Below, in pieces: positions 1-58,280 of a stretch of 64,000 nt of DNA. The notes below the pieces were generated by a model. The model was not told where the DNA came from. It did not search any database and saw nothing but the letters and a program-made list of their open reading frames with translations. The DNA is from Candidatus Woesearchaeota archaeon (GTDB lineage: Archaea; Nanobdellota; Nanobdellia; SCGC-AAA011-G17; JACPNG01). The stretch spans positions 6,265 to 70,264 of the forward strand of contig JACPNE010000003.1 of the NCBI GenBank assembly GCA_016185615.1, read 5' to 3'. The stretch's first letter is position 1; each line of letters starts with the position of its first letter. Position numbers and translations under genes: made by a program.

Positions 1-1414
1 TTTGACTAACCTCATTAAAATCTTCTCCTATCATCTCAGAGGTGAATATGTCACACCCAGTATTAGAGCTTTTAAATAGTTTAGAGTCCGAAGGGCAGAT
101 AAAATCATTTATGCATGTTCCTCCGACTCCATTACATGTTTGTGTTTGTTGCTGTGTTTTCCTTGTTTCACAAGATCTTGATTCCAGATTAAAGCTACAT
201 TGTGGGTTTATTTCGCATCTATCTTGTGTTAACCTTGTACAGTCAGTTCTTTGAACGCACCTACTTCCAGATAAAGTGCATACATCAAAGTTTACACAAT
301 TGTTAACAGTTAAATCTTCACAGATAATTTGTTGTAATGACAATAATTTAGAATCTCTTGTTTGTTTATTTCTAATTAATACTTCCTTTGTTTGATTATC
401 TTTTATCCTTATATCCTCTACTATCCAGTTAGATCCTGAATATAAGCTACTTCCTTTAGATACAACACTAACCGAAAATTCATTTTTTGAATTTTGATAT
501 ATAAGGAATTTTGCCTTCTCTCCAACACTTCTTATATCATTGACCCTTATTCTAAACCTATTAAATAAATTGCCAAATCTTGAATATCCTCCGTTTAATA
601 TAACTCCAGATGTCCTGCCTCTTTGGATAGTTATTGCCCTACTGTTCAATAAGTTCATATTATTATCATAAAGAACAAAACTTGCACTATCTCCCTTGAC
701 TTCAGATGCCCTTATAAAACCTCCAAAAAAGCTATGCTGGTCTTTCTCTCCCAACCACTCATGCTCAGTCTGCTCAATCAGAACATCCTCTCTGGGGCCA
801 AATCCTAATCCTTCAGAAACATCAAAGCTGATGACTGCATCCAAACTGATTTTTATTGTTTCTGGGACATCCTCTTCCTTAGGAATTCTTCTTATTGTAG
901 TTTGGATAAATCCCAAATTATCATAAGTTGGATCTGATCTTACTTGCATGGTTGAAAACCCAGCTAATAACCTTGGATTTATATATCTTGAACTAACACT
1001 CACTTTTTTTCCTTCAGGAACTGTAGTTACATTAGCTATTCTTATCCTTACATCCCTTATCCTTGGAACTGTTATAGATGGGTTAGATGGGTATCCCAAT
1101 AATAAAGACCTTACATAAACGTCTTGTTTTTCTAACAAAGAAGCTCTTATCCTATCTGGAACGTTCTGTTCAATATTAATTACAATATCCTCTCCAAGAT
1201 TTCTCTCTTGGGTTGGTCCCAAGACGATAGAATCTCCACCAAGTTCAAATCCCGTTCTTAACCTTGGATCTCCTAATGATAAGGAGCTACTAAATCTTGG
1301 ATCTGTGTATATATTTGTGTTTGTTTGTATATTAGATTGAGCATAAACTTGTATTGTTGAGATATTGCTAAATATTAAAATCGTTATAAAAAATATTGAT
1401 AACCCCTTTTTCAT
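1..1414 (-). CDS. secreted hypothetical protein, 3' end cut by window edge (Sec-type signal peptide, Cys-rich distal region)
   Basis: Absent from the ORF track because no stop lies in the window. Manual translation from ATG at 1414 gives MKKGLSIFFITILIFSNISTIQVYAQS... and stays open to position 2. Its ATG overlaps the stop of the upstream gene (ATGA at 1411-1414). The last ~95 aa in the window contain 12 Cys (..IICEDLTVNNCVNFDVCTLSGSRCVQRTDCTRLTQDRCEINPQC..). Confidence 0.6.
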   Translation of the reverse strand, partial: MKKGLSIFFITILIFSNISTIQVYAQSNIQTNTNIYTDPRFSSSLSLGDPRLRTGFELGGDSIVLGPTQERNLGEDIVINIEQNVPDRIRASLLEKQDVYVRSLLLGYPSNPSITVPRIRDVRIRIANVTTVPEGKKVSVSSRYINPRLLAGFSTMQVRSDPTYDNLGFIQTTIRRIPKEEDVPETIKISLDAVISFDVSEGLGFGPREDVLIEQTEHEWLGEKDQHSFFGGFIRASEVKGDSASFVLYDNNMNLLNSRAITIQRGRTSGVILNGGYSRFGNLFNRFRIRVNDIRSVGEKAKFLIYQNSKNEFSVSVVSKGSSLYSGSNWIVEDIRIKDNQTKEVLIRNKQTRDSKLLSLQQIICEDLTVNNCVNFDVCTLSGSRCVQRTDCTRLTQDRCEINPQCSFNLESRSCETRKTQQQTQTCNGVGGTCINDFICPSDSKLFKSSNTGCDIFTSEMIGEDFNEVSQ

Positions 1415-3381
1415 CTTGAAAACTCTGGTTGTATTACTTGATTAGTGTCAATCTTATTATAAATATTATTTAGTTCATTAACATTTGCTGGAATTCCAAA
1501 GCTGTTAATGAAAAATATAATTTTCTTTGAATTGGACAGATCTTCCCTATTAACACCCCACCCAAAGTTAACTCCACCACTAATAACTTGAGGCAAAGTA
1601 ACTCCATCAACTTGTGTTTTAATGCATTTCTTTTCTGTCAGTCCCATAATTCCGAGTATTCCCTCTCTTGGCTTGTCCAAACATGTTTCAATCTCTTGTC
1701 CAGGAATGAATACTTCTGAATCTAATAATACAAAACCATTAACATTATAATTTCCATCTATAAGTTTTATTGTGTTAATATCTGTAGATGAGATGGTTGT
1801 AACATAATTAGATTGCTCATTTCTAAATGTCAATGTTACCTGCTCATTTTTTGATAAACTTCTTATTACTCCATTTTCATTAATTTTTATCTCGTAATTA
1901 AGCTCATAGATTGGCTCCATTAAAACAGAAATTATTGATTCTTCTGTAGTTGACAATAAAGTTTCACCATTATGATATCCTTCTTTCTCTACAATAAGTT
2001 GTCCATTTGCACATTGTGGGAATTTATCATCTAAGAATATATCTCCCCCAATATTAGTTGTCTCTCCAATATTACATAAAGTAGTTGAACATTTATAAGA
2101 TACTTTAGCTCCATTTAATTCATTTAGATTTCCATCTGGATTTATTCCTAAAGCAAATACTTTTATTCTTGTCAATGGATTTTCACATATAATTGGATTA
2201 GTATCATAATTTTGATCAATTTCAACAGCATTCTCTCTTGGTTGATTATTATCAATTATAACTTGAGTAGCAAACTGGAATGTATAATCCTCTTTTTCTA
2301 AAGTTACTAAAACGGGATATTTTATATCATAAACAAAATTATATTGGTTTAAACAAAAAAATGGTGTTAAAAACCTTCCAATCGATCCTCTGTTAAATGA
2401 TTCCCCCTGTAAAACCTCACCTTCTGGTGTAATGTCTATTAACAATGGCCAATTTTCCGAATACTCAAAATTTATGTTAATCTCTCTTGCTTTATCTAAA
2501 ATGTTTAATACTTGATACTCATTATCTACATCTTCAGAATCTTTAGTGCCTTCAACCCTGAATGAATTTATATTAACATCAAGAATGCTCTTCAGATCGG
2601 TAATAACTTCTTCTTTACTCCATCTTCTAGGACTACATTCAAAATCAACATCGTTATAGGGAATTTCATCGTACACATTTATGAAATCTAAAGTTTTTTC
2701 TTCCAAGAATAAATTTTCATTTTCCTTGTTTATTATTTCCATTGCTGCTTCATATAACTCACCAATCGGAACATCTAAATTTACATTAAAATCCCTTAAT
2801 CTAAAGTTTTTTCCTTCAAAGTCAATTTCTAAAGGATATTCAACATTTACTCTTACTCTCTCATCTAATATATTAACCTGGCTTTCTACGCTTCCTGAAA
2901 CAATATTAAAATTTAGATTTGAAAAATCAACACAATTTTCTAGATTAGCATCTATATAATTTTTCAATTCTTGCTCCATTCTTTGTCTTGGTGGCATTAA
3001 AGAATCAACTACTCCATTTGCCTTCTGATAAAACCAGTAAGCTACATTGATATTAGACCCCGGAAATATCTCCAATTTATTGGATAAAGGGTTTGCTGGA
3101 GTTATAATTGGATCATTAGGCAGGATTATATATCCACCTTGCTGACCCATTATTTCTAATCCTGCTCTTGAAACCTCTTCTATGCATGAGGTTATTATGT
3201 TACTAACCCCCTTTACCTCATTTGGCAAAGCAGTAGACTCAAATAACCCTATTTCACTTAATTCACCAAATATAACATCCCTATAATAATAAGATAGCAA
3301 TAATAGCGAGACAGTTATTAACCCAACTATAACAAAAATGGTTACTTGTGCTTTTTTATCCTCTCTTTTTTTGGATTTCAT
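1411..3381 (-). CDS. large extracellular protein with prepilin-like (class III signal-like) N-terminus
   Basis: 656-aa ORF. N-terminus MKSKKREDKKA-QVTIFVIVGLITVSLLLL is a basic stretch, then A/Q, then ~20 hydrophobic residues. Residues ~55-200 resemble the whole 195-aa protein at 57693-58280. No enzymatic motif recognised. Confidence 0.7.
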   Translation of the reverse strand: MKSKKREDKKAQVTIFVIVGLITVSLLLLSYYYRDVIFGELSEIGLFESTALPNEVKGVSNIITSCIEEVSRAGLEIMGQQGGYIILPNDPIITPANPLSNKLEIFPGSNINVAYWFYQKANGVVDSLMPPRQRMEQELKNYIDANLENCVDFSNLNFNIVSGSVESQVNILDERVRVNVEYPLEIDFEGKNFRLRDFNVNLDVPIGELYEAAMEIINKENENLFLEEKTLDFINVYDEIPYNDVDFECSPRRWSKEEVITDLKSILDVNINSFRVEGTKDSEDVDNEYQVLNILDKAREININFEYSENWPLLIDITPEGEVLQGESFNRGSIGRFLTPFFCLNQYNFVYDIKYPVLVTLEKEDYTFQFATQVIIDNNQPRENAVEIDQNYDTNPIICENPLTRIKVFALGINPDGNLNELNGAKVSYKCSTTLCNIGETTNIGGDIFLDDKFPQCANGQLIVEKEGYHNGETLLSTTEESIISVLMEPIYELNYEIKINENGVIRSLSKNEQVTLTFRNEQSNYVTTISSTDINTIKLIDGNYNVNGFVLLDSEVFIPGQEIETCLDKPREGILGIMGLTEKKCIKTQVDGVTLPQVISGGVNFGWGVNREDLSNSKKIIFFINSFGIPANVNELNNIYNKIDTNQVIQPEFSR

Positions 3382-4498: not shown

Positions 4499-4592
4499 AG
4501 CCCCAGGGAGGATTTGAACCCCCGACCTACTGCTCTCTTATGAATAATATACTCAGTACAAGGCAATTGCTCTACCACTGAGCTACTGAGGC
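4499..4592 (-). tRNA. tRNA-Thr (anticodon UGU) with 22-nt intron at 37/38 (intron 4535-4556)
   Basis: Reverse complement: acceptor GCCTCAG/CTGGGGC, D-arm GCTC-AGTGGTA-GAGC, anticodon stem ATTGC/GCAGT, loop CTTGTA|intron|A, T-arm GGGGG-TTCAAAT-CCTCC. The intron can form a bulge-helix-bulge (CTTG:TAAG helix flanked by 3-nt bulges TA|C and AG|A). Confidence 0.8.
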
Positions 4593-21282: not shown

Positions 21283-21515
21283 TAAGAGAATTTATTAGAA
21301 GAACTTTTGGGTTTGGAGCAAAAACAATATTGGACAATAGAGATTTAGATAGGAAAGATTTGAAAGACATGACAAAAAACGTGATTAATGAGTCAGTAAA
21401 AGAAGAAAAAAGGCTAAAAAATGTAATGAGGAAAGAGGTAAAAAAATCCATCAAAAGAGTTGCTTCTAAAGCAAAAGTTTCCAAAAAGAAAGCTAAAAGA
21501 AAAAAGAGGAGATAG
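21279..21515 (+). CDS. small Lys/Arg-rich hypothetical protein
   Basis: 78 aa. ATGA overlap with the UbiB stop suggests translational coupling. The composition is low-complexity, so the call is uncertain. Confidence 0.35.
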   Translation: MIREFIRRTFGFGAKTILDNRDLDRKDLKDMTKNVINESVKEEKRLKNVMRKEVKKSIKRVASKAKVSKKKAKRKKRR

Positions 21516-22362
21516 ATTGACAATAGAGAATATACTATTGACTGTAGGCATTGTTGGATTAGTGGCTGCTTCTGTTTCTGATATAAAGACAAAAGAAGTT
21601 CCTGACTGGATAAGCTACAGTATGATATTCTCTGGAATATTTCTAAGATTGATCTTTTCAGCAAAAACTTTTATTTGGTCTTTCTTTTTTATTGGACTTT
21701 TGGGATTTTTTAGTATGTTATTGCTTGGAAATCTAATGTACTACACAAAACAATGGGGTGGGGGAGACACAAAAATCATGATGGGTATTGGTGCATTATT
21801 TGCTACCATAAATGAACAAAATTTATTTTTGCTTAATTTGATAATTAATTTACTCATTGTTGGAGCCATATATGGATTAGTATGGAGTATTATACTTGCA
21901 ATCAAAAACAAAGATAAATTTTTGAAAGAAATGCATAAAAAAATGAGAGATAATAAAAGATTGGGTTTAATATTATTAATAATATCAATAATTCTAACAA
22001 TAAATCTTCTCTTTGTACAAAATACAATAGTTAAAATATTTATATTTACAATTGTTTTGTTGGTTGGATTATATTATTATCTATTAATTGTTATAAAAGC
22101 AATTGAAGATTCTTCAATGTACAAGATGATTTCTGTATCTAAGCTAACTGAAGGCGATTGGATAGCACACAATATCAAACTAAATCATAGGATTATATAC
22201 AAAAAATCTAGTTTGGGTGTAACGAAAGACCAACTTAGTCTTATAAAAAAGTCAAAAATAAAGAGAGTATTGATAAAAGAAGGCATTCCATTTATTCCTT
22301 CTATATTTATAGCAACACTAATAACTTTAGTTTATGGGAGTTTAGTTTCTTTATTAGTTTAG
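21460..22362 (+). CDS. type IV prepilin/preflagellin peptidase (A24 aspartic peptidase, PibD/FlaK/EppA-like)
   Basis: Polytopic membrane protein with two Asp motifs in A24 order: AASVSDIKTKEVPD and KQWGGGDTKIMMGIG (GxGD). The true start is probably TTG at 21517, directly after the stop of the preceding small ORF. Confidence 0.75.
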   Translation: MLLKQKFPKRKLKEKRGDRLTIENILLTVGIVGLVAASVSDIKTKEVPDWISYSMIFSGIFLRLIFSAKTFIWSFFFIGLLGFFSMLLLGNLMYYTKQWGGGDTKIMMGIGALFATINEQNLFLLNLIINLLIVGAIYGLVWSIILAIKNKDKFLKEMHKKMRDNKRLGLILLIISIILTINLLFVQNTIVKIFIFTIVLLVGLYYYLLIVIKAIEDSSMYKMISVSKLTEGDWIAHNIKLNHRIIYKKSSLGVTKDQLSLIKKSKIKRVLIKEGIPFIPSIFIATLITLVYGSLVSLLV

Positions 22363-24165: not shown

Positions 24166-24253
24166 GCCCTTATGGTGTAATCTGGACTAAGCACAGAAGC
24201 TTGCGGTTCTAAGCAAAAAGCTTCAAATCTGGGTTCAAATCCCAGTAGGGGCA
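24166..24253 (+). tRNA. tRNA-Arg (anticodon GCG) with putative 12-nt intron at 37/38 (24207-24218)
   Basis: Acceptor GCCCTTA/TAGGGGC, D-stem GTGT/GCAC, anticodon stem GAAGC/GCTTC, loop TTGCGG|intron|A, T-arm CTGGG-TTCAAAT-CCCAG. TTGC:GCAA helix with 3-nt bulges GG|T and AA|A (relaxed BHB). Confidence 0.7.
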
Positions 24254-33629: not shown

Positions 33630-34082
33630 TTAACATGTAATTTCTGGGCAACCAACGCCCAAATCTAAGATACTATTTGATCCATATCTTTCTTTTATTA
33701 AACCCTCATTAGTTCTAGCCTTATCACTACATGTATAAACAGTATCATATTTCCCGTCACTACCTATGTTTGATCTGCCATCTATCACAAAAGCAGTATT
33801 ACAATAAGCTGAATTTTTTCTTAAATTTCCTGTATCTGGTAGTAACTTAGCTTGATCACAAAATTGTTGACAGCTTTGAACAGCTAAAACCTCATCAGTC
33901 CCTGCTGTAGTCGAGTAAAATGTAGATTTTATTCTATCTGTTAGCCCTTTAAAACCACCAAAAAAGAATGTAACAACAACAACTAAAACTAGAATAGCTA
34001 ATATTGCAATTATGATTGTGTTTAGAGTTAAACTTTGACCTCTTTTGTCCATCTTTTTTTGCATAAAGATATTAGTAATCAT
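33630..34082 (-). CDS. candidate major pilin (class III signal KRG-Q, Cys-rich globular part)
   Basis: ..MQKKMDKRG-QSLTLNTIIIAILAILVLVVVVTFFFGG, with Q at +1 as in many archaeal pilins. The start is probably ATG 34064 or 34052, because TATA-like ttttatatata abuts the first ATG. An 89-bp upstream spacer is present. 7 Cys in the C-terminal part. Confidence 0.65.
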   Translation of the reverse strand: MITNIFMQKKMDKRGQSLTLNTIIIAILAILVLVVVVTFFFGGFKGLTDRIKSTFYSTTAGTDEVLAVQSCQQFCDQAKLLPDTGNLRKNSAYCNTAFVIDGRSNIGSDGKYDTVYTCSDKARTNEGLIKERYGSNSILDLGVGCPEITC

Positions 34083-40046: not shown

Positions 40047-42308
40047 TTAAAGCTGTCTCATTCTTATTCTTCTTTTTAACCATTCTTCCCAACTAAAAAA
40101 TATTCTCTTATTGTCAAGGTATCCAACTTCTTCTTTCACTATCTCGCTTATCCTATGGAATTGGTCATTCGAGTCTATAACAAACTTAGCTTCTAATAAT
40201 GAATCATTTTTTAGTTTATCTGCATAATTAACTAGTGTTTCTTTTATTTTTGCTCTTAATAATATATTTTCCCAGATAGCATCCCAGTTACCAGCCCACT
40301 CCTTAACATTTCCGCCTATCTCCTTGATTATTTCACTGTCTCCGTTTATCAAGTCATCAGTAGGAATTAGCATGTCTTTCTTTGTATCATATTTCATCAG
40401 ATCAACAAATCCTCTTTCTCTCAATGGATCTTCTTCCCAATGTTTTCTTACTTCAGTTATTTGGGTAATCCTCCTCCATTTATGCAACCCATCCGGACTT
40501 TTCATTGGATTTGCAACAACAATGATGTCTGTTGCTTTAAAGCTAGTTTTTGGAACTTTCAAATCATTTACAACCCTATCAAATACCCCATAAGGAGAAT
40601 CTCCATGTATTGTACCAGCAACGACATTTGCTAATGCACCTATTCTCATAGCTTCATAAAGTGCAAATGCTTCCAAACTTCTTATCTCCCCAATTATTAA
40701 GCTAGAGTCTCCTAATCTTAGTGCTGTTCTTATCCCCTCATCAGCAGCTACTTCAGTTCCTCCTTTTGTCAAAGCACTTCTAACTTTCATCTGTTGGACA
40801 TTATATCCTAATTCTCTTAGGGCATCAACTGGCAATTCTAAAGTATCTTCTAATGTTATTATTCTATACTTTCTCATTATCTCAACCAAAATTGATCCCA
40901 ATAAGCTAGTTTTTCCAGAACTTCTAGTTCCTGCAACTAACATTGTTCTTGAGCCATCTATTAAGAAACTCAATAATCCTGATCCTAATGGACTTATCAT
41001 CCCATTTTTAATGAATAATGGCAAAGTCCAAGGCTTATCTCTATGTCTTCTTAGGGCATAAGCTAATCCATATGGATTTAATGGTCTTTGTATTATTGCA
41101 ACTCTTGCCCTTGAGCTTGGTAAAATTAATTCTGTATCAAGTATTGGATTTGCTTCATCTAATGGTCTTCCACTTAATATCCTAAACTTTGATGCCCATG
41201 ACTCTGCATCCTCATTGCTAGGAACTAAATTTGTTGAACATTCACCATAATCCTCATGAACTAGGAATATTGGTGTTTGTCCTACTGGAGCATTTAACGT
41301 TATATCTTGTACTTTTTTGTCTTCTAATAAAATTTCTAGTACACCAAAGCCAATAGTATATCTAACTAATATTTGTGCTAGTTCATTTAATTCTTCAAAT
41401 GTAACCTCTACATTTCTTGATTCAGCTAATTCTTGTAATAAATCCCTTCCAATATTAAAGAAAGTATTTCTCATTTTTTCTGGCTCTAGGAATTCTTCCT
41501 CTCTGGGCTTGTGTTCTGCTAATACCCCTCTAGCTAAATCCAATAATTCATATTTATCTTCTGTTAATTTAAATTCAGGGGGAGTTAAATGATATAATGA
41601 TTTTATATCTTTCTCAGTATTGTATATTACAACATCGCTTTCTCCGAAAGAATAAACACTTAATTGCTCTCCGTCTAATGGGTGCTGTGCCATTAATCTT
41701 GTAAACATAAAATCTGGGGTAATAATCGGTCTAAAGATAGATGAATACAAACTTCTGTCTCCAATTTTATAAGCTGCTAAATTTTTTCTTGCTACATTGA
41801 TTAATTTTGTTTTATCTAATATCCCGTAGACATATTCTAATATATTGATATAAGACTGTTGAACCTCAACTAAATCAAGAGGAACTTTATTTAATTTTAT
41901 TTTTTCTTCTCTTATTAATCGTCTTAATTCAATATACGCTCCAAGTGGATCTGCTCTAAGTAAATTTATGATTAGATCTTGTAATTTAGTCTGCCATTCA
42001 GCTAAAAAATTCATGGCTCCTGGTTTTGAAGCTATGTCTGCTAAAGTTAAAATTTTTTTCTGTTTAATAAGCATTTTATACAAATTGGCAATCTCAACAA
42101 GCATCTGTGTTTGTTCATATCCATAGCTATAATTTCTTCTTTGAGTAAAAACTATTCTTCCTGTACTTGGAACTTGGACTAAATAGTCTATAGTTTTAGC
42201 CATCACAACAGCATTACCTTCTATACTAGGAACAAAACTCCATTGATTAGCATTTATTCTAAGAATATCCTCTCTTCCCTCTTTTAGAACTTGATAATCT
42301 TCTGTCAT
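40047..42308 (-). CDS. type II/IV secretion-system family ATPase (FlaI/PilB/VirB11 superfamily) with long N-terminal extension
   Basis: Walker A AGTRSSGKTS, Asp-box/Walker B region TLEDTLEL...SSLIIGEIRSLEA, His-box AGTIHG. 753 aa. Confidence 0.85.
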   Translation of the reverse strand: MTEDYQVLKEGREDILRINANQWSFVPSIEGNAVVMAKTIDYLVQVPSTGRIVFTQRRNYSYGYEQTQMLVEIANLYKMLIKQKKILTLADIASKPGAMNFLAEWQTKLQDLIINLLRADPLGAYIELRRLIREEKIKLNKVPLDLVEVQQSYINILEYVYGILDKTKLINVARKNLAAYKIGDRSLYSSIFRPIITPDFMFTRLMAQHPLDGEQLSVYSFGESDVVIYNTEKDIKSLYHLTPPEFKLTEDKYELLDLARGVLAEHKPREEEFLEPEKMRNTFFNIGRDLLQELAESRNVEVTFEELNELAQILVRYTIGFGVLEILLEDKKVQDITLNAPVGQTPIFLVHEDYGECSTNLVPSNEDAESWASKFRILSGRPLDEANPILDTELILPSSRARVAIIQRPLNPYGLAYALRRHRDKPWTLPLFIKNGMISPLGSGLLSFLIDGSRTMLVAGTRSSGKTSLLGSILVEIMRKYRIITLEDTLELPVDALRELGYNVQQMKVRSALTKGGTEVAADEGIRTALRLGDSSLIIGEIRSLEAFALYEAMRIGALANVVAGTIHGDSPYGVFDRVVNDLKVPKTSFKATDIIVVANPMKSPDGLHKWRRITQITEVRKHWEEDPLRERGFVDLMKYDTKKDMLIPTDDLINGDSEIIKEIGGNVKEWAGNWDAIWENILLRAKIKETLVNYADKLKNDSLLEAKFVIDSNDQFHRISEIVKEEVGYLDNKRIFFSWEEWLKRRIRMRQL

Positions 42309-53112: not shown

Positions 53113-54305
53113 TTTTAGAAGTATTTATAGCAATATTAATCGGAATAACTCTCGGAATAATTACAGGCTTAACCCCTGGGGTGCATATAAATTTAGTTGC
53201 TGTTCTTGCCTTAACTTCTTTCCCAATATTATCTGAGTATTTTTCAGTTTTGTCTGTAATAATCGCATTAATATCTATGGCAGTAGCCCATACGTTTTTG
53301 GATTTTATCCCTTCAGTTTATTTGGGCGTACCAGATTCAGATACATCATTATCTGTATTTCCGTCACATAGACTATTATTTGAGGGAGATGGTCATGAAG
53401 CAGTCCAATTAGCAACCTTGGGTAGTTTATTTGGGTTAGTAATTACCATATTTATGACTCCAGTATTAATAATTAGTGTAAGAAACTTTTATCCAGTAAT
53501 TAAACAATATATTCCACTTATATTAATTCTTTCTTCTTCATTTTTAATTTTAAGAGATAGAGACAGAAAATGGTCATTAATCGAATTTTTATTATCGGGC
53601 GTACTAGGATTAGGAGTATTAAGTTTAGATTTAAGTCAGCCATTATTTCCGTTGTTTTCTGGTATGTTTGGGATTAGCACATTATTAATGAGTCTAAAAA
53701 ATAATACAAATTTGCCAACACAAAATATAAAAGATTTATCCATAGACAATAAAGAAACCTTTAAAGCTCTTGGTGGTGGTTTTATAGCTTCTTCATTAGC
53801 TGGATTTCTTCCGGGCCTTGGATCAGCACAAGCAGCAATAATTGCATCTAATATAACTGGAAAATTAAGTTCAAGAGGATTTATAGTATTAATAGGATCG
53901 ATAAACACAATTGTAATGATCATCTCTTTTATAGCATTATATGTTATAGACCGGGCAAGAAATGGAGTAATAGTTGTGGTTTCTAAGATTGGTGGAGTAG
54001 TAGATATGAATCACCTAATACTATTTTTAGGAGTCAGTTTTATTGTAGCAGGATTATCAACATTTTTAACATTAGAGTTATCAAAATTATTTTCTAGAGT
54101 GGTTAGTAAGATAGATTATAAAAAAGTGAGTATCTTGATTATAATTTTAATAATAAGTTTGGTTACGTTTATTACCGGTTTATTAGGATTATTTGTATTA
54201 ACGGTATCAACTTTTGTCGGATTAATTCCTATGCTCAAAAATACAGGAAGAAGTCATTTAATGGGCTCATTAATAATTCCGGTTATACTTTATTTGTTGT
54301 TATAA
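53109..54305 (+). CDS. polytopic membrane protein, TctA/DUF112-like
   Basis: 398 aa, >=9 TM. N-terminal GIITGLTPGVHINL and internal GFLPGLGSAQAA resemble the duplicated DUF112 motif. Confidence 0.55.
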   Translation: MILEVFIAILIGITLGIITGLTPGVHINLVAVLALTSFPILSEYFSVLSVIIALISMAVAHTFLDFIPSVYLGVPDSDTSLSVFPSHRLLFEGDGHEAVQLATLGSLFGLVITIFMTPVLIISVRNFYPVIKQYIPLILILSSSFLILRDRDRKWSLIEFLLSGVLGLGVLSLDLSQPLFPLFSGMFGISTLLMSLKNNTNLPTQNIKDLSIDNKETFKALGGGFIASSLAGFLPGLGSAQAAIIASNITGKLSSRGFIVLIGSINTIVMIISFIALYVIDRARNGVIVVVSKIGGVVDMNHLILFLGVSFIVAGLSTFLTLELSKLFSRVVSKIDYKKVSILIIILIISLVTFITGLLGLFVLTVSTFVGLIPMLKNTGRSHLMGSLIIPVILYLLL

Positions 54306-57300
54306 TTTTTACGATTGAATATTTTCCCGCCAAATAAGCTATTTGATTTCCTATTTGGTTTTGTATCTTCTGATTTTTTATGTGATGAAGAAACTTTCTC
54401 GATTTCTTTTTCATACCATCCAACATTTAATGATTTTGTCTTTAGATAATCCAAATTATATCCTCTTTTTATCCCTTCTTTGAAATAATTTTCTAAATCT
54501 TTTATATTAGAATGCTCATCAAAAGTATTTTTCTTGAATTCAGGCATTGGTTCTATTATGCTTTTTTGTTGGGATTGTTTCATTTTTGATTCAAAATCAA
54601 ATGATGGAATATTAGTTACTTTCTTATCATCTTTTTTACTTTTAATTTTCTTATTTTTCAGATAATAGTATCCAATAGCAGAAATAACTAATAAAGATAT
54701 TAAAATTATAATAAATAATAAAAATAAATTTGAGCTTTCTTTTGTGCTACAGTCTACTTGACAATTGTTTATTGTTTCTGGATATTCTCCAGAATTATCA
54801 CAAATGCCATTTTCATTACATAAAGGAGTTATATCTTCCCTGTCATTTAATCCATCTGTATCTGTATCTGGATTAGAGGGATTATATCCTAATCTTAATT
54901 CTTCATCATCGCTTAAACCATCATTATCAGAGTCTTTTGATGAAATCTGTTGTGTTTGTAATTCTGTTTTTTGTATTTGAGCAACAGGTTCTATACATGT
55001 TCCATCGGGCCTGCATATATTATTAACAGGACATCCGCATATTGCACATTTCTGCTCTAATTTTCCATCATTACAGTATTTTGGTTTATTATTACTACAA
55101 CTATTATCAGAGGTTCCATCAGAGCAGGATTCTCCTGAACCAGAACAATCAGAATCTTTGTTGTCTATCTGTCCATCGCAGTCATTATCTAATTTGTCTA
55201 AACATGAAGTTTCTTGTCTCTCATATTCTTCTAGTGAGTCATAATCGCAAGAATCCCATTCTCCATCTATACAAGTTTGGGTTAACCCCCCACAAATCCC
55301 TTGTGTTAAATCACAAATCCTTGTTTCATCTTCTTCACAACTACAGTCTTCATCTACTGAGCCATCGCAGTCATTATCAATATTATCTTCGCAAACTTCT
55401 TGTATTGGAAGAACCGTTCCTAGACATACACTCCATATATTATTAATGCATTCTTGGGTTCCTAAACTACATGCCCCTATTCCTGTTCCACAATTTTTAG
55501 ATTCTCCTAAATTACAATTACATCCTTCATCTACTGAGCCATCGCAGTCATTATCTGATGAGTCACATATCTCATTTAGTGGTGCAACTGCATTTTTGCA
55601 TATGCCCCATTCCAATAAGTCTCCAGAGAGTTCACATGTTTGGATTCCTTCTTTACATATTCCTTGGTTTGGACCCCCACAACCCCTTGTAACCCCTTCA
55701 TTAGTGCATTCACAATCCTCATCTATTGTATTATCACAATCATTATCTAAATTATCTCCACACATCTCTGTTGTTGGTCCAGTAGAACCCTGGCAACTGC
55801 CCCAACTTCCATCATCCTGACATGTTGTAATGCCTTGATTGCATTCCCCAATAACACTTCCACAAGCCCCCACATCTCCGGGGTTACAACTAGTTTTATC
55901 AAGGCAATCTTGTGAACATGAAATTTCATTCTCATTTGAATTACAAATTCCGTCCCCACAATATCCTTCTGTATCTTCTGCTCCACAATCTGTATCCTCT
56001 TCATCTAATTTTCCATCACAATCATTGTCTTTTCCGTCTTCACATAAATTCTGTTCATTATTATTACAAACACTAAATTCTCCATTCACAAATTTACTGC
56101 ATCCAAAATCTCCATCAGCCAAATATTTATCACAGAAAAATGTAAAGAATCTGTTTAATCCTATGTCATTTTCTTCCGTTTTATATGTACAATTCGCTTC
56201 ATCAGTATTTGTAGAAGTGCTACAATATTCTCCTTGATTACATGCCCCATTAATTATATCCTCATTTTCTCCATCACCCTTACATATAATAATTGATTTC
56301 AGGCATATATCTCCTTCATCCACTTGTCCATTACAATTGTCATCTTTAAAATTACAAACTTCCTGTACATCTTGATAGCTCTCTGAATTATTGTTACAAT
56401 ATTCTCCTTCAGAGGTATAATTGGAAGGCATTGATTCATTATTTGGAATTCTTCCTAAATCTCCAAATGCACTGTATTCAATTATTACTGGAAATCCTCC
56501 AAGCCCTTCATCTGGAATCTCGACTTTGAAACCATTATCTGTTAATGTTGCCCAACCATATATAGAAGAAGTGACACTTACTGGATTATTACCACCCTCT
56601 CCATCATCTGTGTATCCAACAACACAAGTGTCTTTTGATTCTATACACACCCCATTTATCTTAAATCCTTCACTTTTTAAGAGATTATAATTATAAGCAG
56701 TTAACCAGTCTAAAGTGCTTCTATCACATATCGTGCTATTATAAAGATTTACTCTTGTTCCAGTAACGCAATAATCAACTTCGGCACTTTTTGCTTGTGT
56801 TTGGGGGTAATTACATTGTTGTGAGGTCATATCACCTTTGTATATATATCCATAATATAATTCAGTCCATGGTTTATCTGGAAACTGCCCAGCAAGTTCA
56901 GCATTCATGCATGAATAAAGATTTAATGTTAATATTACTAATTTTGGTCTATATCCAAGATCTACTGTATAAGTTGGTCTTCTTACAGAATGCATCCAGA
57001 ACCTATCTGAGTCTACTGCACTACTTATTCTAATATCATTTGAAGAATTTTTTTGGGTACAATCTGAATCAAATTCTCCACAATCCGAATCACATAAATT
57101 ATCGTCTGATAATAAACAACAATCTCCGGAATTAGATGTGCATTCACCGCAATCAGGATCTACTCCTTGGGTACATTTATTGCTGCATATTCCGTCCTCT
57201 GTAGGATTACATCCAGGAATTATTCCGCATAAATTGAATTTTATATCTTCACCAACTTTAACATTGCCATTTTGAGGAATTAAAAAGACCCCATTGCATG

Positions 57301-57715
57301 AAGATTCTAATGCACATTCATTTGTTTTTATTATTGCAAATGTTCCCAATTCATCTATTTGTGTTGTGATAAACTTTTCAGTCCCATTTATGATTATTTG
57401 GCTCTGGAGATTGATCCATTCTTTTTTATCATAATTATATTTAGCTAAAGTTATATCTGTTTTACTATTACATGTATTCCACTCTTCATTATATGGTCCA
57501 TCTGGTGGAAATTGATATGTAAATTCACCAAAATTAGAGGATAAATCCTCATATTTATATATTGGACTTAATACTAAACTGCAATCACTAAAATTGGAAT
57601 TTTTACAGTCTAATATCTTCTCATAATTTATTGTATCTTGCTCCCCATATACTATTTCGAATGATAATAAAATTATTAGTAACGATAATATTTTAACAGG
57701 CAACACAAACATCAC
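54290..57715 (-). CDS. giant Cys-rich surface protein (signal peptide, DNDCDG-type repeats, TSP3-like Ca-binding repeats, C-terminal TM anchor and Lys-rich cytoplasmic tail)
   Basis: 1141 aa. Signal MMFVLPVKILSLLIILLSFEIVYG. At least 5 copies of C-x-D-x2-DNDCDG-x2-DE (residues ~555-855). DSDNDGLSDDEE/NPDTDTDGLNDRED. TM LFLLFIIILISLLVISAIGYYYL (residues ~997-1019), followed by a tail of ~120 aa. Confidence 0.8.
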   Translation of the reverse strand: MMFVLPVKILSLLIILLSFEIVYGEQDTINYEKILDCKNSNFSDCSLVLSPIYKYEDLSSNFGEFTYQFPPDGPYNEEWNTCNSKTDITLAKYNYDKKEWINLQSQIIINGTEKFITTQIDELGTFAIIKTNECALESSCNGVFLIPQNGNVKVGEDIKFNLCGIIPGCNPTEDGICSNKCTQGVDPDCGECTSNSGDCCLLSDDNLCDSDCGEFDSDCTQKNSSNDIRISSAVDSDRFWMHSVRRPTYTVDLGYRPKLVILTLNLYSCMNAELAGQFPDKPWTELYYGYIYKGDMTSQQCNYPQTQAKSAEVDYCVTGTRVNLYNSTICDRSTLDWLTAYNYNLLKSEGFKINGVCIESKDTCVVGYTDDGEGGNNPVSVTSSIYGWATLTDNGFKVEIPDEGLGGFPVIIEYSAFGDLGRIPNNESMPSNYTSEGEYCNNNSESYQDVQEVCNFKDDNCNGQVDEGDICLKSIIICKGDGENEDIINGACNQGEYCSTSTNTDEANCTYKTEENDIGLNRFFTFFCDKYLADGDFGCSKFVNGEFSVCNNNEQNLCEDGKDNDCDGKLDEEDTDCGAEDTEGYCGDGICNSNENEISCSQDCLDKTSCNPGDVGACGSVIGECNQGITTCQDDGSWGSCQGSTGPTTEMCGDNLDNDCDNTIDEDCECTNEGVTRGCGGPNQGICKEGIQTCELSGDLLEWGICKNAVAPLNEICDSSDNDCDGSVDEGCNCNLGESKNCGTGIGACSLGTQECINNIWSVCLGTVLPIQEVCEDNIDNDCDGSVDEDCSCEEDETRICDLTQGICGGLTQTCIDGEWDSCDYDSLEEYERQETSCLDKLDNDCDGQIDNKDSDCSGSGESCSDGTSDNSCSNNKPKYCNDGKLEQKCAICGCPVNNICRPDGTCIEPVAQIQKTELQTQQISSKDSDNDGLSDDEELRLGYNPSNPDTDTDGLNDREDITPLCNENGICDNSGEYPETINNCQVDCSTKESSNLFLLFIIILISLLVISAIGYYYLKNKKIKSKKDDKKVTNIPSFDFESKMKQSQQKSIIEPMPEFKKNTFDEHSNIKDLENYFKEGIKRGYNLDYLKTKSLNVGWYEKEIEKVSSSHKKSEDTKPNRKSNSLFGGKIFNRKNYNNK
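55145..56053 (-). repeat. protein-level tandem Cys-rich repeats (~55-65 aa units ending in DNDCDGxxDE) inside the 1141-aa gene
   Basis: Units read from the translation: ..CEDGKDNDCDGKLDEE.., ..CGDNLDNDCDNTIDEDC.., ..CDSSDNDCDGSVDEGC.., ..CEDNIDNDCDGSVDEDC.., ..CLDKLDNDCDGQIDNKD.. The motif resembles the MopE-type putative metal-binding repeat. Confidence 0.6.
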
Positions 57716-58280
57716 CTGCGCCTTTTAAGTTAAAGCTTACTTTATCACCAATTTTAAAATTCTTCGAAATTCCACCAGTATTGACTGTCTTTGACTCCTG
57801 TGAGATACAATTGTCATAATTATCTACGATTATTGGGAAACAAAAATTAATAAATAGAACATCTTTTGAGATGAAATTATTTAACGAGGTTATCTTACCC
57901 TCTTTCAATATTTTTATTGGCCAAGTAACTTCAACAACCAAATCTTTATTTGGCCTTAGAGTAGATTCTACATTAGTTAATTCTCCTACTTCTATATTAT
58001 AATTTACAAATCTAGAAAAATCATTGCATTTTAAAGGTAAATTAGTTTTAACATAATCTTCTAAGCTAGATTTAAAATTATCAGATTTAACTGCAATCCC
58101 TTGTCCTACCTTAACAACATCATCTAAACATCCTTGAATGTAAGATTCGACATCCGGAAATTCTTCAGGTTGAATATTAATTAATGAGATTTTTCCGCCA
58201 ATAAAATAAAAAATAGCTATAACTGCTAATAATACAATGCCCAATATTATGAAGATTGTAGTCTGTCCTCTTTTTTGCAT
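57693..58280 (-). CDS. prepilin-like protein (195 aa), homologous to the N-terminal domain of the 656-aa protein at 1411-3381
   Basis: N-terminus MQKRG-QTTIFIILGIVLLAVIAIFYF. ..YIQGCLDDVVKVGQ..LEDYVKTNLPLKCNDFSRFVNYNIEVG.. parallels ..IITSCIEEVSRAGL..LKNYIDANLENCVDFSNLNFNIVSG.. in the 656-aa protein. Overlaps the start of the 1141-aa gene by 23 nt. Confidence 0.7.
   Translation of the reverse strand: MQKRGQTTIFIILGIVLLAVIAIFYFIGGKISLINIQPEEFPDVESYIQGCLDDVVKVGQGIAVKSDNFKSSLEDYVKTNLPLKCNDFSRFVNYNIEVGELTNVESTLRPNKDLVVEVTWPIKILKEGKITSLNNFISKDVLFINFCFPIIVDNYDNCISQESKTVNTGGISKNFKIGDKVSFNLKGAGDVCVAC

Follow-up and report, generated by a model that had tools for sequence, protein, structure and literature searches.

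A pilin-like protein translationally overlapping a giant cysteine-rich surface protein in a DPANN archaeon: one instance of a widespread gene cassette

Sets made of minor pilins and a large non-pilin adhesin are known from bacteria, such as FimU-PilVWX-PilY1 in Pseudomonas and the PilC system of Neisseria, while the surface layer (S-layer) of the Sulfolobales combines an anchored stalk, SlaB, with a canopy, SlaA. Among archaea, type IV filament loci (systems 2, 4A/B and 4G) encode large adhesin-like proteins (PMC13705601, where PilY is also discussed; Makarova et al. 2016, PMC4858521), and type IV filament systems were rarely detected in DPANN archaea by census (PMC13705601). Few DPANN archaea are cultivated, and their attachment to and recognition of other cells are largely obscure. 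The locus analysed here lies in a stretch of 64,000 nucleotides (nt), hereafter the window, from Candidatus Woesearchaeota archaeon assembly GCA_016185615.1 (contig JACPNE010000003.1, positions 6,265 to 70,264), and consists of two overlapping minus-strand genes, encoding a 195-amino-acid (aa) pilin-like protein and a 1141-aa cysteine-rich protein, hereafter the giant. The genome in which the window lies is 86% complete, with 668 kb in 8 contigs; it is that of a DPANN archaeon of low GC content, whose closest named relatives are Candidatus Woesearchaeota. The pair is one instance of a widespread gene cassette, and this cassette probably builds the cell-contact surface of the group.

A conserved pair of overlapping genes and its products

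The pilin-like gene and the gene of the giant are adjacent in all nine related loci examined, distributed over three different neighbourhoods, and overlap by 4-26 nt in eight of the nine; the pair noticed by the first-pass annotation, which was made from the letters of the window alone, is one case of a more general rule. As for five more distant members of the pilin-like subfamily (23-30% identity), a giant with MopE motifs comes next in 5/5, either fused (1700, 1464 and 1481 aa) or split (689 + 960 and 502 + 1207 aa). The genes flanking these distant cassettes are those of TFIIB and a TRM methyltransferase, or else of a RIO kinase on one side and, on the opposite side, of an S8 peptidase together with a Y1 transposase. 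At locus L018 (189-3085), the S8 peptidase gene and the Y1 (IS200-type) transposase gene precede the cassette, an arrangement which hints that cassettes can move.

In the window, the giant gene lies in the polD region, directly downstream of DP2 and on the strand shared by cdc6, DP1 and DP2, with 46 nt between the DP2 stop codon and the pilin-like ATG. This neighbourhood, described as odd by the first-pass annotation, is real, but little significance can be attached to it: the polD-adjacent position is specific to the clade of the window, and nine of ten cassette loci have, regardless of the upstream gene, a TTTA[AT]A[AT]A-type element whose end lies 20-25 nt ahead of the ATG. An archaeal TATA box from which a leaderless mRNA is transcribed would have such a spacing. 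The element is probably the cassette's own promoter, yielding a leaderless or near-leaderless mRNA, with the reservation that in an AT-rich genome it is suggestive only. Since the pair has its own TATA-like box and other neighbours (TFIIB, PCNA and others) in other lineages, its polD position is incidental, and membership of a polD operon was rejected. It is hardly credible, moreover, that the two genes are mere neighbours or part of a polD operon with no functional link. Their common strand with cdc6-DP1-DP2 and the short gap after DP2 would agree with this, but the pair moves as a unit among polD, TFIIB and other contexts, its start and stop codons overlap, the TATA-like box is conserved and the pairing holds across the whole family (see below). 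These comparisons support a real functional unit. At the other end of the pair, the 3' ends of the giant and of a convergent TctA-family transporter gene overlap by 16 nt (54290-54305), an arrangement kept in five of the five loci of the clade.

The small protein starts with a short basic leader and a hydrophobic helix of ~20 residues (MQKRG/QTTIFIILGIVLLAVIAIFYFIGG, the slash marking the predicted cut), and the N-terminal sequence (MQKRG/QTTIFIILGIVLLAV...) looks like a class III (prepilin-type) signal of archaea. This assignment is supported by conservation: G5, Q6 and six cysteines are invariant in alignments of 5 and of 27 sequences, the latter at 25-67% identity. Members of the subfamily measure ~190-215 aa, share these invariant residues and end in G-x-C-x-A-C; C192, A194 and C195 are invariant, and C-x-A-C closes the protein in 25 of the 27 alignment rows. 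In the AlphaFold2 (AF2) model (18 sequences; predicted local distance difference test, pLDDT, 81.5), a transmembrane (TM) helix (aa 4-29) and a disordered linker (aa 28-38) precede two helices bearing C51 and C85, then a four-stranded sheet, and the remaining four cysteines are held by a small C-terminal beta mini-domain. A profile of the pilin-like family gave no match to PDB sequences. The label "pilin-like" is used because of the N-terminus and of the peptidase described below, not because of the fold: in its extreme conservation, the N-terminal helix is like that of true pilins, whereas the modelled fold is not.

Concerning the giant, the list of open reading frames (ORFs) opens it at a GTG (57715), giving an ORF of 54290-57715 and 1141 aa. 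The ATG at 57712, also taken as the start in orthologue L009 (94% identical), is probably the true one. Both ORFs lie where the first-pass annotation had placed them, and the 23-nt overlap it reported is obtained from the GTG vs. 20 nt from the ATG; within it, the end of the small protein, G-D-V-C-V-A-C-stop, also reads M-F-V-L-P-V-K of the giant. Signal-peptide and TM assignments were made from hydropathy and conservation. They bear out both the Sec-type signal peptide (a signal-peptide-like hydrophobic segment, aa 1-24) and the single TM helix, expected at ~54660-54727 and placed by hydropathy at 54668-54736. The Lys-rich tail, estimated at ~120 aa, measures 125 aa, with 30 K+R vs. 17 D+E, and is 50-56% identical to those of loci L010-L012; its composition fits an N-out, C-in topology. 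Eighty-four cysteines are present in total and none after the TM helix. The architecture is that of an extracellular, membrane-anchored, repeat-bearing surface protein.

The repeats of the giant match PF11617 (Cu-binding_MopE) in six stretches (E 1.2e-13; 51.5 bits vs. a 27-bit cut-off, above the gathering score), where at least five DNDCDG-type repeats had been announced, and all orthologues match this family. In the thrombospondin-type-3 (TSP3)-like loops, two Dx[DN]xDG matches are present; the score on PF18884 (TSP3_bac) is 21.9 bits in the giant, just under the 25-bit cut-off, and 29.1 bits, above it, in the orthologue L012. Six exact Dx[DN]xDG motifs were counted vs. 0.19 expected (maximum of 3 in 2,000 shuffles): four are D-N-D-C-D-G loops inside the MopE motifs and two lie in the TSP3-like region. 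Dx[DN]xDG is a linear calcium-binding loop motif (review, PMC3123361).

The Pfam name, and a match above threshold, might suggest that the repeats bind metal for uptake, i.e. copper capture as by the MopE of Methylococcus, but we regard this as very improbable. In MopE*, copper is bound by two His and a kynurenine, not by the Cys/Asp motif that PF11617 models, and MopE was stabilised by calcium during purification (PMC3423442). The Cys/Asp motif fits the Dx[DN]xDG calcium-loop pattern (PMC3123361), and it occurs abundantly in surface proteins of myxobacteria, in a wide range of architectures. Since the copper site lies outside the PF11617 motif, the family name is no evidence of copper binding, and the copper reading drawn from it was rejected as uninformative.

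Upstream of the stalk, domain A combines a beta-sandwich (~110 aa) with a Cys-rich segment, DG-x-C...DPDC, on its C-terminal side. For the head, the AF2 model has a pLDDT of ~80-90 for aa 25-135 only (53.7 for the whole model, and below 50 for domain B). Weak Foldseek matches of this model (GAIN-domain, lectin; none with E <= 0.001) were dropped, the model being too poor past the first ~110 residues. Pfam and NCBIfam scans of domain A, domain B and the tail gave nothing usable, and searches of PDB sequences with the giant and with the domain A profile gave no match. N-glycosylation sequons are not enriched in the ectodomain, with 8 seen vs. 13.0 +/- 3.3 in shuffles.

The tail contains a module of ~39 aa (aa 1070-1108; nt 54392-54508, minus strand; NIKDLENYFKEGIKRGYNLDYLKTKSLNVGWYEKEIEKV) with no Pfam family match. 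Its pattern, ..L.NY...G...G.....LK...L..GW.EEEIE.., also ends a 187-aa type I membrane protein encoded elsewhere in the same genome (C5:82149-82712), and the module is found at the C-terminus of the L018 giant as well. It may be a common intracellular docking or sorting element. Another tail ending, ..K(S/T)(R/K)EE..LE.S(M/L)K...E(L/M)F.KK, is common to the L015, L016, L017 and L019 giants, which belong to cassettes in TFIIB context, and is also present in a 614-aa Cys-rich anchored protein of the window's genome (C3:5217-7061).

Fusion and fission of head and stalk

A protein search with the giant returned 328 relatives, nearly all of them through the repeats, and four close orthologues. The loci of the latter share a common order: DP1, DP2, a pilin-like gene (192-197 aa), one or two surface genes and the convergent TctA gene. 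Loci L010, L011 and L012 have two surface genes, "middle" and "big". The middle genes (648, 649 or 376 aa) encode a signal peptide and no anchor, and the big MopE genes (917-1065 aa) have their own signal peptide, TM helix and tail. Aa 24-223 of the giant (domain A) are 55-59% identical to the middle genes, and aa 418-1136 align with the big genes from ~aa 127 on, the stalk being orthologous to their part from aa ~127 to the end. From these alignments, the 1141-aa ORF is a lineage-specific in-frame fusion, head to stalk, joining what the nearest sister lineages encode as two separate genes. Domain B (aa 224-417), which in the fusion takes the place of both the 3'-terminal part of the middle gene and the 5'-terminal part of the big gene, matched solely its own lineage when module proteins, the window's genome and JGI metagenomes were searched.

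The search for orthologues put forward in the first-pass annotation showed an unbroken fused giant in each of three assemblies of independent origin, namely those of the window, of L009 (ENA) and of L059 (JGI), so that the fusion is not an assembly error. Both genes are under purifying selection: dN/dS is 0.135 for the pilin-like gene (dS ~0.11) and 0.15 for the giant (dS ~0.19), and ranges from 0.06 to 0.18 for all parts, domain B included, at dS ~0.11-0.30. The latter domain is thus coding (dN/dS 0.15). Variation in repeat number between strains, also envisaged at first pass, was not observed between the window and L009; variation occurs only between species, the spacing from MopE motif 2 to motif 3 being 94, 162, 163 or 331 aa.

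Taking all cassettes, the giant is fused in the window, L009, L059, L016, L017 and L019, and split in L010, L011, L012, L015 and L018. Homologues of domain A are the middle genes of these five split loci and the N-termini of the fused giants of L016, L017 and L019. Domain A is present in 10 of 10 cassettes, always in the gene directly after the pilin-like gene, and the pilin-like gene itself is fused to the giant in none of the ten. Such repeated fusion or splitting of head and stalk, a Rosetta-stone pattern, argues that the two associate physically. In L010 (1776-3722) and L011 (4042-5991), a serine-protease domain of the Trypsin_2 family is encoded in the head gene, where it lies after the signal peptide and ahead of domain A (E 1.3e-12 in L011), which indicates that the same cassette type can display an enzyme; this trypsin-like domain was not found by tblastn in the window's own 86%-complete genome. 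The locus thus offers a natural experiment, with head, stalk and protease modules fused, split or swapped among close relatives, showing which parts cooperate.

An anchorless secreted middle protein followed by a TM-anchored big one could also be the two parts of a structural envelope module rather than an adhesin, i.e. a constitutive surface layer or spike comparable to SlaB plus SlaA, with the pilin-like protein as a third subunit. The cassette is syntenic and single-copy, evolves under purifying selection, possesses a promoter-like box of its own and is found in every relative examined, all of which would suit this alternative. We nevertheless consider it doubtful: the genome holds several different giant cassettes (see below), more like a repertoire than one lattice protein; heads swap between lineages (protease, domain B or none); stalk length varies with the 94 to 331 aa between motifs 2 and 3; and the Pfam scan gave no match to an S-layer family.

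Family-wide pairing with giant secreted proteins

A profile of five orthologues of the pilin-like protein, searched against 1.84 billion representative proteins, gave 1,228 clusters at E <= 0.001. The members range from 150 to 1,200 aa, and all start with M-x-KRGQ(V/I)T(I/V)F(I/V)I(L/I)GI; ~30-40 residues after this N-terminal motif, a V..YV..C(L/I) helix is conserved. None has a Pfam domain, and all the named ones are annotated as "hypothetical protein" (Woesearchaeota, Nanoarchaeota and unclassified archaea). No description of the KRGQ-type motif or of the cassette was found in the searchable literature, the motif being absent from the text of 8.4 million papers searched for it. More than 1,000 clusters of "hypothetical" proteins hence become one family with a predicted role.

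Four members (195, 261, 656 and 271 aa) are encoded in the window's genome. Three of them overlap a downstream giant secreted ORF, of 1141 aa, 1266 aa (60 Cys) and 1878 aa (43 Cys), respectively; as for the fourth, a 577-aa secreted protein starts one base past its stop codon. The cassette of the 656-aa member is itself at the left edge of the window (Table 1), and members of 614-663 aa with partners of at least 1399 aa (running off the locus end) recur in six other genomes. A third cassette lies outside the window (C4:110303-119956), in a pilin-rich cluster with the order 1027-aa Cys-rich protein, 261-aa family member, 1266-aa Cys-rich protein (4-nt overlap) and three small proteins with a pilin-type N-terminus (327, 178 and 145 aa). 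A PCNA-like gene is found upstream of it, as in locus L022. In three extra metagenome members, the next ORFs measure 1222, 729 and 1158 aa and overlap by 4-7 nt (3/3).

This pairing was counted in 35 loci of named species genomes, obtained from a locus scan with 6 sequences, a downstream ORF being one on the same strand with its start -45 to +90 nt from the stop codon. The downstream ORF has at least 600 aa in 26 loci and at least 400 aa in 30, vs. 5.4% and 13.5%, respectively, of the other ORFs of the same loci. Its median length is at least 1218 aa, many being cut by the locus end, and all but three have a strongly hydrophobic start.

The pilin-like subfamilies track the partner families, a conclusion supported by a maximum-likelihood tree of the shared N-module (47 rows). 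The partner labels need 16 changes on this tree, which is the minimum for 17 groups, vs. a mean of 33 when labels are shuffled (0 of 200 shuffles as low as 16). A branch with support 73 separates the nine partners of MopE/domain-A giants from the other rows, and the four paralogues of the window's genome fall into four different clades, each with its own partner family. Note that relatives share partner labels, so that the tree shows stable co-inheritance of cognate pairs, not physical binding. BLAST single-linkage clusters, whose agreement with partner families was too coarse (adjusted Rand index 0.11-0.20), were replaced by this tree test. Not all partners are rich in cysteines: the giants of L021 and L053 have 4 and 0 Cys, respectively.

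These data also bear on whether the small protein is a membrane-tethered maturation factor of the Cys-rich giant, either a folding chaperone or a CXXC thiol-disulfide partner, and no filament or adaptor subunit at all. A Gly-preceded C-x-A-C is invariant at the C-terminus of the very subfamily paired with MopE/domain-A giants, the partner in the window has 84 Cys, translational coupling would ensure one-to-one production, and each giant family has a cognate partner subfamily. This explanation is, however, unlikely in our opinion. No thioredoxin fold was apparent in the secondary-structure pattern of the AF2 model, in Foldseek (which returned no oxidoreductase) or in Pfam, and the CXXC lies at the extreme C-terminus; the partner of L019 (168 aa, 2 Cys) is devoid of the CXXC mini-domain and yet precedes a 1481-aa giant with 118 Cys; other members pair with the giants of 0-4 Cys just mentioned; and the most conserved part of the family is its pilin-type N-terminus. 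An oxidoreductase reading of the terminal CXXC is thus weakened by the L019 partner lacking the motif and by the absence of a thioredoxin fold.

The window also encodes processing and filament components (Table 1). Its A24 prepilin (class III signal) peptidase is likely the processing enzyme of the small protein, given its family match, and a candidate major pilin (33630-34082) bears the same KRGQ motif. The cassette stands ~15 kb from the pilus core locus.

Table 1. Coordinates of the gene pair, its parts and related features in the window (plus, forward strand; minus, reverse strand)
Feature	Coordinates	Strand	Basis
195-aa pilin-like protein, class III signal type, C-x-A-C subfamily	57693..58280	minus	ORF, alignments, profile search
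Leader MQKRG; predicted prepilin-peptidase cut between G5 and Q6	58266..58280	minus	G5/Q6 invariance
Hydrophobic N-terminal helix of predicted mature protein, aa 6-29	58194..58265	minus	hydropathy; AF2 helix 4-29
C-terminal C-V-A-C (CXXC) motif; codons also encode start of giant	57696..57707	minus	alignment, dual coding
TATA-box-like element TTATATTTAAATAA	58301..58314	minus	20 nt upstream of pilin-like ATG
Giant, predicted type I surface protein, 1141 aa	54290..57715	minus	ORF, Pfam, hydropathy, orthologues
Sec-type signal-peptide-like segment, aa 1-24 (...EIVYG/EQDT)	57644..57715	minus	hydropathy; kept in L009 and in the 376-aa middle gene of L012
Domain A, aa 25-223	57047..57643	minus	homology to separate middle genes and fused giants
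Domain B, aa 224-417, junction domain restricted to own lineage	56465..57046	minus	only in window, L009, L059
Cys-rich stalk, six MopE (PF11617) motifs at aa 458, 563, 657, 721, 780, 843	54941..56464	minus	
Two TSP3-like Asp-rich loops, DSDNDG and DTDTDG (aa 928-960)	54836..54940	minus	both Dx[DN]xDG matches
Predicted single C-terminal TM helix, aa 994-1016	54668..54736	minus	hydropathy peak 3.13; same position in all orthologues
Lys-rich, predicted cytoplasmic tail, aa 1017-1141	54293..54667	minus	125 aa; 30 K+R vs. 17 D+E
A24 prepilin (class III signal) peptidase	21460..22362	plus	PF01478 E 3.4e-12, 47.2 bits vs. 26.5-bit cut-off; GGGDTK motif
T2SSE-type ATPase	40047-42308		PF00437 E 8.1e-15
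Paralogous cassette: 656-aa family member (KKAQVTIFVIVGLI...)	1411..3381	minus	4-nt overlap with 1878-aa secreted giant
1878-aa secreted giant, 43 Cys	2-1414, continuing past left edge	minus	cassette spans genome C2:2042-9645

A few other features were recorded. Two over-long tRNA genes, at 4499-4592 (minus strand, 94 nt; an odd 4-base anticodon was given by ARAGORN) and 24166-24253 (plus strand, 88 nt; found by Rfam only), probably both contain introns. Outside the window (C8:30621-31403), the same genome encodes a 260-aa protein with eight hydrophobic segments and YD...GGGD motifs, which resembles proteases of the presenilin/signal-peptide-peptidase type. On a related marine DPANN contig (L020:1932-2789), a DsbA/Thioredoxin_4 protein is encoded a few kb from the cassette.

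Proposed role and comparison with known systems

The reading we favour, with a confidence that is evenly balanced, is that the pair forms one transcription unit building a DPANN surface structure, composed of a cognate pilin-like adaptor and a contact spike stiffened by calcium and disulfides. The giant would be exported by Sec and held by its C-terminal helix, with a stalk of ~500 residues, stiffened by disulfides and by the calcium-binding Dx[DN]xDG loops (MopE, TSP3-like), keeping the N-terminal head domains A and B off the membrane, while the conserved ~39-residue module would stay in the cytoplasm. The 195-aa protein would be made in fixed proportion through translational coupling and cut after Gly5 by the A24 peptidase (21460-22362). 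Once mature, it would serve the head as its cognate pilin-like adaptor, with domain A as the most likely binding partner, and would tie that head either to the membrane or to the machinery of the type IV pilus. Such binding would explain why domain A always follows the pilin-like gene, how heads can be anchorless and why adaptor subfamilies track their partners. In this respect, the conserved cassette is a concrete, testable candidate for a DPANN contact apparatus.

Several points weigh against this adaptor-and-spike reading. The giant has its own membrane anchor and needs no adaptor for tethering. As modelled by AF2, the small protein has its TM helix and its alpha/beta domain joined by a disordered linker (aa 28-38); a Foldseek search of the PDB with that model gave no match at E <= 0.001 (best 0.037) and no pilin in the top 50; and the protein matches no Pfam or NCBIfam family, hence no pilin family. 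Finally, a chaperone or maturation role would also agree with adjacency and co-inheritance.

A broader proposal, which is only tentatively put forward, would make the KRGQ-type family a DPANN-wide modular two-partner display system, in which each giant secreted protein has a cognate adaptor with a class III signal that, once cut by the prepilin peptidase, mounts it on the membrane or on a single type IV filament machine, and which would be the main toolkit of these episymbiont-like cells for recognising and holding other cells. The displayed giants would include adhesin-like spikes, protease-bearing heads and others. In a still more speculative variant, the exposed hydrophobic helix of the mature adaptor, located at the tip of the stalk, would insert into the membrane of the partner cell.

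As a whole, the pairing of a prepilin-type protein with a large adhesin is already known, both from bacterial minor pilins with PilY1/PilC and from archaeal filament loci. Like the PilY1/PilC sets, the window has small prepilin-leader proteins encoded beside a very large secreted protein, which mediates contact in the bacterial sets and would do so here; in either case, the genome also encodes a type IV filament machine together with an A24 peptidase. It differs by having one adaptor per giant vs. four minor pilins in the bacterial sets, by a giant devoid of the PilY1 beta-propeller (Pfam scan) and endowed with its own TM anchor and cytoplasmic tail, and by its distance of ~15 kb from the core genes of the pilus; similarity was detected neither in sequence nor in fold. 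With the archaeal type IV filament loci, it shares class III signal proteins co-encoded with large surface proteins, which are immunoglobulin-rich or adhesin-like. Whereas those proteins belong to described arCOGs and lie inside loci with the ATPase and platform genes, the family of the window is without Pfam or NCBIfam match and occurs as stand-alone cassettes of two or three genes, with strict one-to-one pairing.

The MopE-motif proteins of Myxococcota and other bacteria, some of which are annotated by their sources as MYXO-CTERM domain-containing, are large, secreted and multidomain, and their Cys/Asp repeat motif is that of the giant (27-40% identity to it over the repeat region). The likeness is confined to the repeats; only the DPANN cassettes have domains A and B, the TM-plus-tail end and the pilin-like partner. 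In the modular pilins PilB and PilC of Streptococcus sanguinis (PMC8179133), a pilin-type N-module likewise carries an adhesive or enzymatic module to the surface, but that module is fused to the pilin, while here it is a separate, translationally coupled giant. As for SlaA and SlaB, the split cassettes similarly co-encode an anchorless outer protein and a stalk protein anchored by a C-terminal TM helix; they are distinguished by the lack of sequence relation, their extreme Cys content, several paralogous cassettes and a pilin-like third partner.

Compared with all these systems, the cassette differs in that its adaptor family is unannotated and DPANN-wide, that adaptors and giants, the latter from many families, are paired strictly one to one with translational coupling and away from the pilus core locus, and that, at this particular locus, a self-anchored giant was made by the fusion of head and stalk.

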